In this document: in pieces, positions 13,954-15,453 of the stretch | Position numbering within the stretch: position 1 is the stretch's first letter | Layout of the letters: every line of letters begins with the position of its first letter | Virus record (IMG/VR): IMGVR_UViG_3300031454_000001 | Span: 7,546 to 71,545 of that record | DNA length: 64,000 nucleotides | Source: a virus | Strand: one strand, 5' to 3' | Position numbers and translations under genes: made by a program | The notes under the pieces: generated by a model | What the model was told of the DNA's origin: nothing | Databases searched by the model: none | The model's input: the letters and a program-made list of their open reading frames with translations, nothing else

Positions 13954-14152
13954 TTTTGTGTTCCTTGTGAAGTAACCATGTATCGCGCTCTATGGGGCTT
14001 TTAATGCGACCGGATGACACTTTTTTGATGTGATAATTATCATAATCATCTACGGCAAATATTAAGAATATAAATTCTATATATGGAGCATGCATTATCT
14101 AGTCATGGGTTCTACCACTATTCCAAGTACCAACACAATAATTTAAAAGAAC

Positions 14153-14380
14153 TTAATCTTTCCAAGTGATTGCTTTTACAGCAGCAATTTGTGCTAACTC
14201 TGTTTGAGTTATAGCGAATGAACACCATCTTTTTACTCCGGTCTGATCGGTTGTGCTTCTTAGATCATTTAACTGGTCAATTGCATTAGCATAAATCTTT
14301 TTGCATTTTGAAACTGAATCAAGATTGGACGGATTTAATTGCAATTCAACTGCCTTTTCACCGAAAGTTTGTTCTGACAT
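14153..14380 (-). CDS. Small helical protein resembling Acb2/Tad1 hairpin (DUF7681-like) anti-defence proteins
   Basis: RWCSFAITQTELAQIAAVKAITW resembles the recalled Acb2 C-terminal helix pattern RW.....T..Q.G..A..RAI. Confidence 0.55.
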   Translation of the reverse strand: MSEQTFGEKAVELQLNPSNLDSVSKCKKIYANAIDQLNDLRSTTDQTGVKRWCSFAITQTELAQIAAVKAITWKD

Positions 14381-14452
14381 ATTGATATTTATTTAATTAC
14401 TTCTTTAAAAGTGCCGGGGTTACCTAAAACACCCGGCTTAAATCAAAGACAT

Positions 14453-14554
14453 TTAAACCTTCACTTCAACGGATGGCGCTGCTGTTGGAGCTGGCGCTGC
14501 TGTTGGAGATGGCGTTTCTACTGTAACTGTTGTGTCTCCTCCTGGATTTATCAT
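14453..14554 (-). CDS. 33-aa Pro/Thr/Ala-rich micropeptide
   Basis: MINPGGDTTVTVETPSPTAAPAPTAAPSVEVKV, AT-rich start context TTAAATATG. Confidence 0.45.
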   Translation of the reverse strand: MINPGGDTTVTVETPSPTAAPAPTAAPSVEVKV

Positions 14555-14582
14555 ATTTAATGTCGCTTTAAAATGCGATTCG

Positions 14583-14630
14583 TGGAGCATGAAGGAAATC
14601 GAACCTTCCGACACCACCAATGGATGCCCC
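14583..14630 (-). ncRNA. 48-nt tRNA-like mini-RNA (acceptor stem, mini D-arm, T-arm; no anticodon arm)
   Basis: GGGGCAT/ATGCTCC 7-bp stem with G3-U70 and discriminator A; CCA-TTGG-TGG; GAAGG-TTCGATTT-CCTTC. Confidence 0.65.
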
Positions 14631-14958
14631 GTTATTATTGTGTTGGACGCTTAGGGTAGTTAAGCGCAGGTTGTTAACCACCAATAATCGCCAACACAAT
14701 TATTTATAAGAATATTGTGTAGGCTCCGGGCTCTTACCGGTATGCACGTCTGTTCAGAGGATTACCAACACAATTATTTCTAAGAACTTTTTTAAAAGTA
14801 CCTGCCGGATCATCAACCCGACTTCCCTTAGCGGCATTCGCAATGTCAAGTGTATTACCCGTTGTTCTTCCAACTGTCATATCATTATTATTGCGTTGAT
14901 AGTCTATGTCGTCGCTTCGCTGATCAGGCGTAGTAAGGCTTCAGAATTACCAACACAA

Positions 14959-15453
14959 TTATTTTAAAGAACTTATTGCTTTTTCAACACATTTCTTTAT
15001 ACATAATGCATCCCACAGCGCATTATGCTTGTTAACCGATTGTGTTTCATCTGCATATTGTTCCCGGCTAATATCAGGGTCAATGCCTTTTATTTTTAGC
15101 AGGGTGCATAAGTCAAATGGAATATAAAATATGTTTTGGGGGATATCAAAAGCGCCACCAAAAATATCGCAAAACAGCACCCAGTCATATGCCAAACAAT
15201 CCGACCATATTTCTACTTGTTGAAACTGTGAAAACCACTCTCTTAATTTTATATTAAGCTCAAACTTGCTAAGAATTATCTCACCATTAAGGTTTCGAAT
15301 AATGTTTTTTTTAATCCAGGGAGATACTTGGTTAATGTCATAATCATTCAATTCAGCATAAAAAGTTGCTCCGTTTTCTGCAACTAATCCGATTGAAATA
15401 AGGCTTGTATATTTGTGAAGCCCTGTAAACTCTGTATCAAAATATACTTTCAT
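14959..15453 (-). CDS. DEDD 3'-5' exoribonuclease (Rv2179c/RNase AS-like)
   Basis: [20 protein letters not shown] and HNALWDA motifs. Confidence 0.85.

Follow-up and report, generated by a model that had tools for sequence, protein, structure and literature searches.

A boxA-like motif joined to short closing helices in a candidate small-RNA array of a Bacteroidota phage

Introduction

Why would a phage repeat one short motif four times within 850 nucleotides (nt), each time ahead of a different stretch of sequence? The question is raised by a 64,000-nt stretch of viral DNA (here called the window), part of the 73,556-base-pair (bp) IMG/VR record IMGVR_UViG_3300031454_000001, which comes from a phage in a rock metagenome. 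On its minus strand lies a motif of 23 nt in four copies, M1 to M4 (positions in Table 1). The first three lead into stretches of 41 to 50 nt, the cargos, each closed by a short helix, and we refer to these as units U1, U2 and U3; U4 is the stretch after M4. The original prediction, made from the letters of the window, took the array for a processed cassette of small RNAs with a constant scaffold and variable cargo, and remarked that the GTTCTTT of the motif resembles a boxA antitermination element.

BoxA is the RNA signal of rRNA operons through which NusB-S10, along with NusG and NusA, is loaded onto RNA polymerase. In what follows we argue that each unit is a boxA of the Bacteroidota type fused to a short helix like that between the leader and the trailer of rRNA, and that the units probably act as a host-Nus-dependent scaffold for antitermination and folding of an untranslated small-RNA cassette, a reading to which we give a probability of about 0.58. 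The motif has the sequence of the boxA of rRNA (rrn) operons, the helix has their geometry, and both are conserved, with covariation, in other phages.

The motif and the boxA of Bacteroidota rRNA operons

A degenerate pattern with three mismatches or fewer has four matches in the 64 kb, which are just M1 to M4, where shuffled sequences lead one to expect 0.03; no fifth copy exists anywhere in the full record. The predicted four copies on the minus strand are therefore confirmed by the pattern scan, and they are where they had been placed. Their extent had been set too short, as the repeat actually reaches about 28-35 nt, with TAAG upstream and TAAT downstream in some copies. The copies are spaced by 185, 74 and 561 nt. 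With spacing so irregular and interiors that differ, the array lacks the form of a tandem RNA repeat of the type III antitoxin or CRISPR kind.

Over its first 17 nt (GTTCTTTAAAATAATTG) the motif agrees with the boxA antitermination element that Bacteroidota have in their rRNA operons. For this comparison rrn loci of Bacteroidota were fetched with the 5′ end of 16S as the pattern, which gave 102 leaders with at least 300 nt of upstream sequence. With up to one mismatch to GTTCTTTGA, 75 distinct sites were found in these leaders; their median distance ahead of the 16S pattern is 144 nt. The extended consensus of the leader boxA is aaaaGTTCTTTGAAAGATTGG, and a single leader reads GTTCTTTAAAATATTG. 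A second copy, GTTCWTTGACATATTG, is present in the 16S-23S spacer of 34 of 43 loci, compared with 0 of 43 in a stretch of the same length from the body of 16S. These two places, leader and spacer, are where boxA is classically located. The likeness first noticed in GTTCTTT thus extends over 17 nt and holds for leader and spacer alike.

A weight matrix of 17 columns, built from the rrn leader sites alone, was used to scan both strands of the window (128 kb). M1 ranks first with 17.4 bits, and M2 (15.2 bits) and M4 (14.3 bits) are third and fourth; the second rank is taken by one unrelated site (15.5 bits), and M3 falls outside the twelve best. A score of 17 bits at a motif specified beforehand has a chance of at most about 1e-5 per offset. 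As the copies repeat each other, they amount to one independent match and not to four. M1 is also an exact instance of GYTCTTTAANA, the boxA consensus published for gamma-proteobacteria (PMC5725501). In strand and in the hairpin/T-run sites downstream, M1-M4 would suit a putative boxA; the nearest canonical promoter in the window lies about 4.5 kb upstream, at 19454.

The likeness to rrn operons includes the position of the helix. Leader-trailer geometry was examined with RNAduplex at 14 Bacteroidota loci by pairing the leader, from boxA onward, with the 150 nt that follow 16S. On the leader side the duplex starts at a distance of 1-16 nt (median 2) from the first boxA base, and at three Polaribacter loci its start coincides with the ATTG at the end of the extended boxA. 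The phage helix likewise starts at ATTG, directly after boxA. Because this start agrees with rrn, the layout of a unit is that of a miniature pre-rRNA: boxA, 5′ strand, cargo and 3′ strand.

The helices that close the units

U1, U2 and U3 are each closed by pairing between ATTGTGTTGG, with which the motif ends on its 3′ side, and an arm further downstream. The helix of U1 has 10 of 10 pairs, two of them G-U, and comes to 12 bp when the next two pairs are counted. U2 has 9 of 10 pairs with one U-U, and in U3 all 10 pairs are Watson-Crick. The three arms of the original prediction were found at their predicted positions with these pair counts. As a control, this G/U-rich 10-mer was set against random 110-nt stretches of the window, and 1.7% of trials reached 9 or more pairs of which 8 or more were Watson-Crick. 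At 1.7% per random stretch, arms in three of four copies are far beyond chance. M4 had been described as lacking an arm, and we too found no convincing one, the candidates being no better than chance.

All G-U pairs, two in U1 and one in a related contig (L271, below), form on the motif strand only, which bears out the claim that the wobble pairs hold on the minus strand. The units have no protein frame in common; a conserved frame had been named beforehand as evidence that would tell against small RNAs. The interiors, once described as unrelated, do differ for the most part, except that U1 and U2 have their first 12 nt or so in common. The cargo of U1 holds a palindrome, CTGATCAG (14920-14928, minus strand). 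The 5′ strand of U2 matches the arm of U3 perfectly, so that mispairing among the repeated 5′ strands is possible. Beyond U3 follows a tRNA-like minihelix, described in the last section; folded together, the two give a z-score of -3.59.

Relatives in other phage contigs

No close relative of the whole phage was found in the collections searched, and homologous units were. Motif scans of viral and metagenome contigs gave real cases in L028, L271/L300, L246 and L344 only, most other exact matches being single chance hits without an arm. Matches of the L260/L275 type were considered as homologs and rejected, being bidirectional terminators. The search of related phages suggested with the original prediction was thus fruitful, with homologous units in the unrelated phage contigs L028, L271 (which equals L300) and L246. 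Other phage contigs keep the leader and the helix around varied cargos, from 41 to about 135 nt across the homologous units, as a constant scaffold with variable cargo should. Flanks of the cargo that pair, with the 5′ strand beside boxA, are found in U1, U2, U3, L271 and L246.

L271 and L300 are one sequence from two metagenomes. The order is hairpin and T-run, GTTCTTTTAAATAATTGTGCCTG, a cloverleaf-like cargo of 77-81 nt and the arm CAGGCATAAT; boxA is kept, and the helix consists of ATTGTGCCTG closed by CAGGCATAAT. Compared with the window, both partners differ in three of its pairs (two U-A replaced by C-G, one G-C by U-A), and a further pair has become G-U. Among 39 distinct chance matches of the L271 pattern, none attains 9 pairs with 8 or more of them Watson-Crick. 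An alignment by MAFFT was unusable for counting pairs, since the cargos differ in length and the 3′ arms fell out of register, and the pairs were tabulated by script. In L246 the motif and a 13-bp helix with one bulge enclose about 135 nt. The covariation among the relatives, together with the strand-specific G-U pairs, argues for an element that acts at the level of RNA and not of DNA. The unit of L300 lies upstream of RecT, as in the window.

The cargo of L271 (3308-3388, plus strand) is predicted to fold like a cloverleaf, with a four-way junction, an outer stem of 5 bp and, at its tip, a 7-nt loop, CUCAUAA, that resembles an initiator-type anticodon loop (CAU). ARAGORN does not call it a tRNA.

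In L028, a metagenome contig of 1.5 kb, the motif is conserved at 27 of 28 nt and is accompanied by a unit and a minihelix homolog; at the protein level the contig and the window are not similar. A near closing arm was considered there and set aside as no better than chance. A perfect TATATTTG box (TAnnTTTG) lies 14 nt upstream of the motif, which would therefore sit at the 5′ end of the RNA and not itself be the promoter. The cargo has CTGATCAGC in common with U1. The palindrome of U1, as CTGATCAG(C) at about 688-696, is the sole cargo sequence common to U1 and the L028 unit.

L344 (2271-4720, plus strand) is a phage tRNA array of 2.5 kb with two tRNA genes each for Phe, Ser and Asn and one for His. 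On the tRNA strand it has four boxA sites of 16-21 bits, three of which were not selected by the search pattern. The first of them, preceded by a hairpin and T-run, ends on G1 of tRNA-Phe, and two more immediately follow tRNA genes. The order of hairpin, T-run and boxA, seen at M2, is repeated in L271/L300 and in L344.

Weighing the explanations

Several observations weigh against the boxA-and-helix scaffold. BoxA is short and A/T-rich, and its four copies count once; M3 is a poor boxA and M2 is off at two core positions. Folding of the units, a check proposed earlier, speaks for U3 (z -4.6) and U1 (z -2.05) and not for U2, whose fold is no better than shuffles (z -0.18), as is also the case for U4 and for the unit of L028. 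The motifs of M2 and L271 lie about 15 nt after a terminator-like hairpin, a position that also suits a promoter. Three DNA runs from rock metagenomes, and only these, hold the sequence, and there are no differences between them; for covariation among strains, the two other runs are identical or a fragment only. Across 401 sampled Bacteroidota genomes the motif matches at the level of the control and without arms, and since it does not rise above that level the element appears to be confined to phages and rare. We know of no experimental demonstration of Nus-factor antitermination in Bacteroidota. RNase III usually wants longer duplexes than these. The closing helices measure 10-13 bp and are shorter than the stalks of rRNA; they fall short of the long rRNA-type duplex of more than 17 bp that 30S biogenesis needs in E. 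coli (PMC10250234).

The likeness to boxA could be a coincidence and Nus factors play no role, the motif being the 5′ scaffold, a handle for a protein or nuclease, of a phage small-RNA family not described before. The 27 of 28 nt conserved between the window and L028 go beyond the need of boxA, and M3 deviates from boxA yet retains the 3′ half of the motif, as one would expect of such a scaffold. That a matrix derived independently from rrn loci puts M1 best in 128 kb, that the match spans 17 nt and has its helix start as in rrn leaders, and that the boxA sites of the L344 tRNA array share the boxA core alone make this account unlikely. Alternatively, each motif might be a promoter, read by a host holoenzyme with sigma-A or by an alternative or phage-directed one, with TAATTGTG as a variant -7 box; transcription of each unit would begin past TTGG, and the inverted repeats would have a role in DNA or none at all. 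TAATTGTG is indeed one position off TAnnTTTG, a scan of the sigma-70 type gives TTGAAA-18-AATAAT over M1, and the motifs of M2, L271 and L344 follow a hairpin and T-run, the usual order of terminator then promoter. The geometry does not hold up, however: the distance from a TTG-like -33 element to the -7 box ranges from 17 to 24 nt, M3 has no such element, and the motif lacks the arrangement of a Bacteroidota sigma-A promoter (TTTG at -33 and TAnnTTTG at -7 with a spacer of about 19-21 nt), whereas genuine promoters of this phage and of phage phi14:2 read CTTG-N19/20-TAnnTTTG. Sigma-A geometry does not account for the conserved GTTCTT block, L028 already has its perfect box upstream, the same motif occurs in 16S-23S spacers after tRNA genes, and both the covariation and the G-U pairs involve a part that would supposedly be untranscribed. 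We consider promoters distinctly improbable.

A boxA followed by a stem-loop also recalls the nut sites of lambda, with the stem-loop as a boxB-like site for an N-like antiterminator that times delayed-early genes such as RecT. In its favour are the temperate lifestyle of the phage, which carries an integrase and has a divergent early region; the recombination genes found downstream of the units both in the window and in L300; and the likeness of the motif to the boxA and spacer of lambda nutL (GCTCTTAAAAATTAA). But interiors and loops differ between the copies, so that there is no conserved boxB loop, though this loop is the recognised part; neither the length of the helix nor the size of the cargo (41 to about 135 nt) is constant; a cluster of four within 850 nt is untypical of nut sites; and no N-like gene was recognised in Pfam and PHROG scans, a search that was not exhaustive. 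Nut sites are thus very unlikely. A mobile or recombinogenic junction in DNA by which phages exchange small modules, comparable to the promoter-early stem-loops (PeSL) of T4-type phages, would account for the motif at module borders, for the SSLK-plus-stop endings that it supplies to a gene of the window and to an unrelated one of L246, for near-identical motifs in contigs without common proteins and for the partial hairpin-plus-motif duplications in the array. It leaves the rrn boxA match, the strand-specific G-U pairs and the compensatory changes unexplained, and as an account of its own it is highly unlikely, although a role in recombination may coexist with one in RNA. Finally, an abundant phage RNA with four boxA copies might titrate NusB-S10 off the host rRNA operons and damp ribosome synthesis. 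Several copies do stand in one predicted early transcript, but related phages have a single copy, and the tight coupling of boxA to the helix fits a role in cis. A sponge of this kind is hardly to be expected.

A scheme for the array and the systems it resembles

With boxA and the closing helix as an antitermination and folding scaffold, the array would be an untranslated stable-RNA cassette in an early operon of a temperate Bacteroidota phage, transcribed by the host RNA polymerase. The latter is the expected transcriber because the phage has an integrase and canonical promoters and no DFDxD motif was found (see below). For the rrn antitermination complex of E. coli to form, boxA is both necessary and sufficient (PMC10250234; PMC13753749); it has been proposed to stay tethered by NusB while the rRNA loops out, so that the leader strand (boxC) can pair with the trailer (PMC10250234). 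In the rrn operons of B. subtilis a hairpin is followed directly by a NusB-binding boxA, and boxA is also found ahead of suhB and of CRISPR operons (PMC13753749).

By analogy, polymerase coming from the early promoter region would read boxA, and NusB-S10, NusG and NusA would make it resistant to termination. In that state it could get through about 0.9 kb of RNA, most of it untranslated, which includes the U1-U3-minihelix stretch of about 400 nt and the non-coding part after M4, along with the hairpin/T-run sites at 14822-14804 and 14437-14407. The boxA-tethered 5′ strand would be held near the RNA exit until the 3′ arm emerges, closing each cargo in the way proposed for pre-16S rRNA. Tethering would matter in the array because repeated 5′ strands could mispair, the strand of U2 fitting the arm of U3. 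The modules and the minihelix would finally be cut out by a double-strand-specific RNase, RNase P and 3′ exonucleases. The 3′-5′ exoribonuclease that the phage itself encodes just upstream may join in this processing, as its adjacency suggests and no more than suggests. We infer Nus binding, antitermination and processing at the array in this sense.

As read from the sequence, this would be a known mechanism, rrn boxA antitermination, in a new arrangement in which boxA is fused to a leader-trailer-like helix around small cargos. With the rrn system (boxA and the leader-trailer helix, with NusA/B/E/G, SuhB and S4) the array shares the sequence over about 17 nt, the 5′ strand of the helix directly after boxA, a stable untranslated cargo (in the array a predicted one), and a tRNA or tRNA-like element that follows, as in the 16S-23S spacer. 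It differs in that the cargo is 41-135 nt as against 1.5-2.9 kb, the helices are of only 10-13 bp, and four units stand in tandem in a phage early operon beside protein genes; a role of Nus factors is suggested by the analogy. Lambda nutL and nutR likewise belong to a phage early operon and have boxA and then a stem-loop, upstream of terminators and recombination genes. In the array, by contrast, there is no conserved boxB loop, the stem encloses a variable cargo, and the copies are many and close. The boxA of CRISPR and suhB also stands ahead of a repetitive untranslated RNA array that would otherwise be prone to premature termination; work by Stringer et al. in 2020 is reported to have found that boxA protects long untranslated CRISPR arrays from Rho. 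CRISPR arrays have one boxA in the leader, whereas the phage array has one per unit, fused to the helix. The PeSL of T4-type phages is similar as well, a short motif and stem-loop that borders small genes in a plastic early region. PeSL, as it is generally described, has a promoter and acts in DNA recombination, whereas the motif of the array is not promoter-like and its helix covaries on one strand.

If the proposal is right, phages use boxA antitermination well outside the N/nut system of lambdoid phages, and in a phylum that has hardly been studied for antitermination by Nus factors. BoxA would serve to build small stable RNAs on an rRNA-like scaffold rather than to time protein genes. It would provide a mutable handle of 17 nt, on a very small substrate, for studying whether the rrn complex chaperones the formation of long-range helices. 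It would explain how the untranslated RNA arrays of phages, such as tRNA arrays and tRNA mimics, get past Rho and terminators. The cargos and the alanine-type minihelix, lying beside an Acb2/Tad1-like gene, would become candidates for RNA-based counter-defence. A broader version, which we regard as unlikely, holds that Bacteroidota phages carry miniature pseudo-rRNA operons: the host rrn complex would be used as both antiterminator and RNA chaperone, tRNA-mimicking decoys (including an AlaRS-type minihelix) would be directed against defences, and the boxA-bounded cassettes would move between phages.

The array in its setting

Nearly all genes of the window are on the minus strand, and the early region is divergent. 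The order on the minus strand is the exoribonuclease gene, U1-U3, the minihelix, a small open reading frame (ORF), a hairpin terminator, the Acb2-like gene and M4 (Table 1).

Table 1. The motif copies, units and neighbouring features, in the order of the minus strand (window positions; aa, amino acids)
Feature	Positions	Strand	Remarks
PF16473 / RNase AS-like 3′-5′ exoribonuclease gene, 164 aa	14959..15453	-	PHROG phrog_2259, E 1e-50; homologs carry PF16473
M1	14950..14972	-	boxA 14972-14956 GTTCTTTAAAATAATTG, overlaps the 5′ strand of the closing helix (14959-14948)
U1 cargo (50 nt) and 3′ arm	14888..14949	-	arm 14901-14890 = TATCAACGCAAT; fold z -2.05
Terminator-like hairpin and T-run	14804..14822	-	just upstream of M2
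M2	14765..14787	-	GTTCTTAGAAATAATTG..., boxA variant; 15.2 bits, rank 3
U2 cargo (41 nt) and 3′ arm CCTACACAAT	14714..14764	-	one U-U mismatch; weakest fold
M3	14691..14713	-	ATTCTTATAAATAATTG..., most degenerate boxA, abuts the U2 arm; outside the 12 best matrix sites
U3 cargo (44 nt) and perfect 3′ arm CCAACACAAT	14637..14690	-	fold z -4.63
tRNA-like minihelix, 48 nt	14583..14630	-	6 nt past the U3 arm; read from sequence, folded
Small ORF, 33 aa from ATG	14453..14554	-	candidate only; contains an 18-nt tandem repeat
GC-rich terminator-like hairpin and T-run	14407..14437	-	followed by a degenerate copy of the pre-M2 sequence
Acb2/Tad1-hairpin-like gene, 75 aa, candidate cyclic-nucleotide sponge	14153..14380	-	Pfam PF24729
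M4	14130..14152	-	GTTCTTTTAAATTATTG..., directly after the Acb2-like stop; 14.3 bits, rank 4
9-bp perfect closing stem, 32-nt interior with GAAA-capped hairpin, then U-run	13903..13952	-	z -3.0

The last codons and stop of the exoribonuclease gene (AGT TCT TTA AAA TAA, SSLK and stop) are supplied by M1 (14959-14972, minus strand). In L246 the motif (7006-7020, minus strand) gives the same ending to an unrelated upstream ORF of 87 aa. Both cases give the impression of a cassette attached directly to the end of the gene upstream. Among 13 viral loci and 3,431 homologs of the exoribonuclease (identity of 67% or less) the motif is present in none, and the flanks are not shared. Homologs of the Acb2-like protein lie in quite different phage contexts, and the motif is not present there. 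The protein itself scores 24.8 bits against PF24729, under the cut-off of 27, and its homologs (51-87% identity) carry that domain. For a 138-aa neighbour and a 446-aa structural protein, no close relatives were found in IMG/VR.

The phage has genes for a crAss-type muzzle domain, SprB/Ig repeats, a lysozyme, RecT and SNF2, and the tyrosine integrase of the Bacteroidota type at 20573-21778 marks it as temperate. Its canonical Bacteroidota promoters are of the TAnnTTTG type, for example CTTG-N19-TACATTTG at 19454. They resemble the middle promoters of phi14:2 (CTTG-N19-TAnnTTTG, as read from the phi14:2 record), which have been described (bioRxiv 10.1101/2020.03.07.982082). In the abundant non-coding regions of phi14:2 neither a similar repeat architecture nor boxA was found. 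A protein of 2090 aa from the virion module (44598-50870, minus strand) was considered as a crAss-type virion RNA polymerase; it is large and a neighbour of the muzzle-domain protein, yet it was rejected, as no DFDxD motif was found in it.

The minihelix (GGGGCAU...AUGCUCC-A) is of the alanine type, with a 7-bp acceptor stem, G3-U70, A73 and a T-arm with a UUCGA loop. Its homolog in L028 (727-781) has the same position after the boxA unit, with U7-A66 replaced by G7-U66. For the cargos, several identities were considered. As tRNA or tmRNA, the units gave nothing in ARAGORN at default settings and noise only at relaxed thresholds. The Rfam scan advised with the original prediction had no success, with 0 families at gathering thresholds and chance-level matches only up to E=10. 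The cargos had also been suggested to be guides, a suggestion that found no support in the phage genome, where complementarity never exceeds 12 nt. The neighbourhood, with its Acb2/Tad1-like gene and tRNA mimics, suggests that they may be decoys of an anti-defence or tRNA-mimicking kind.

Some smaller features of the region may be added. The hairpin before M2 with ACTTTTAAA(A/G)AAGT (14781-14802) recurs with 82% identity at 14394-14415, before the Acb2-like gene. There the motif itself has decayed, a sign that a module of hairpin and boxA was duplicated within the array. The tandem repeat in the small ORF has three copies (14472-14529), and the ORF encodes a P/A/T-rich peptide. The element at 13903-13952 is the end of the non-coding stretch after M4, and AACACAAAACAAACCGG, just before its stem, resembles the U3 arm with the bases that follow it.

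Other phage contigs offer RNAs of similar shape. Upstream of the closest Acb2-like homolog, L239 (2838-2979, plus strand) has a tRNA-shaped sequence with an insert of about 85 nt, in which an acceptor stem (ACCGGGA/TCCCGGT), a D-arm and a T-arm with TTCGATT can be made out; ARAGORN gives no call. The unrelated phage contigs L087/L108, L103, L109, L112 and L093 hold RNAs of 50-63 nt, too short for tRNAs, that read GGGGCA...GGTTCGA...TGCTCCAC. RNAs of the minihelix type may form a wider family of alanine/tmRNA-type minihelices in phages.

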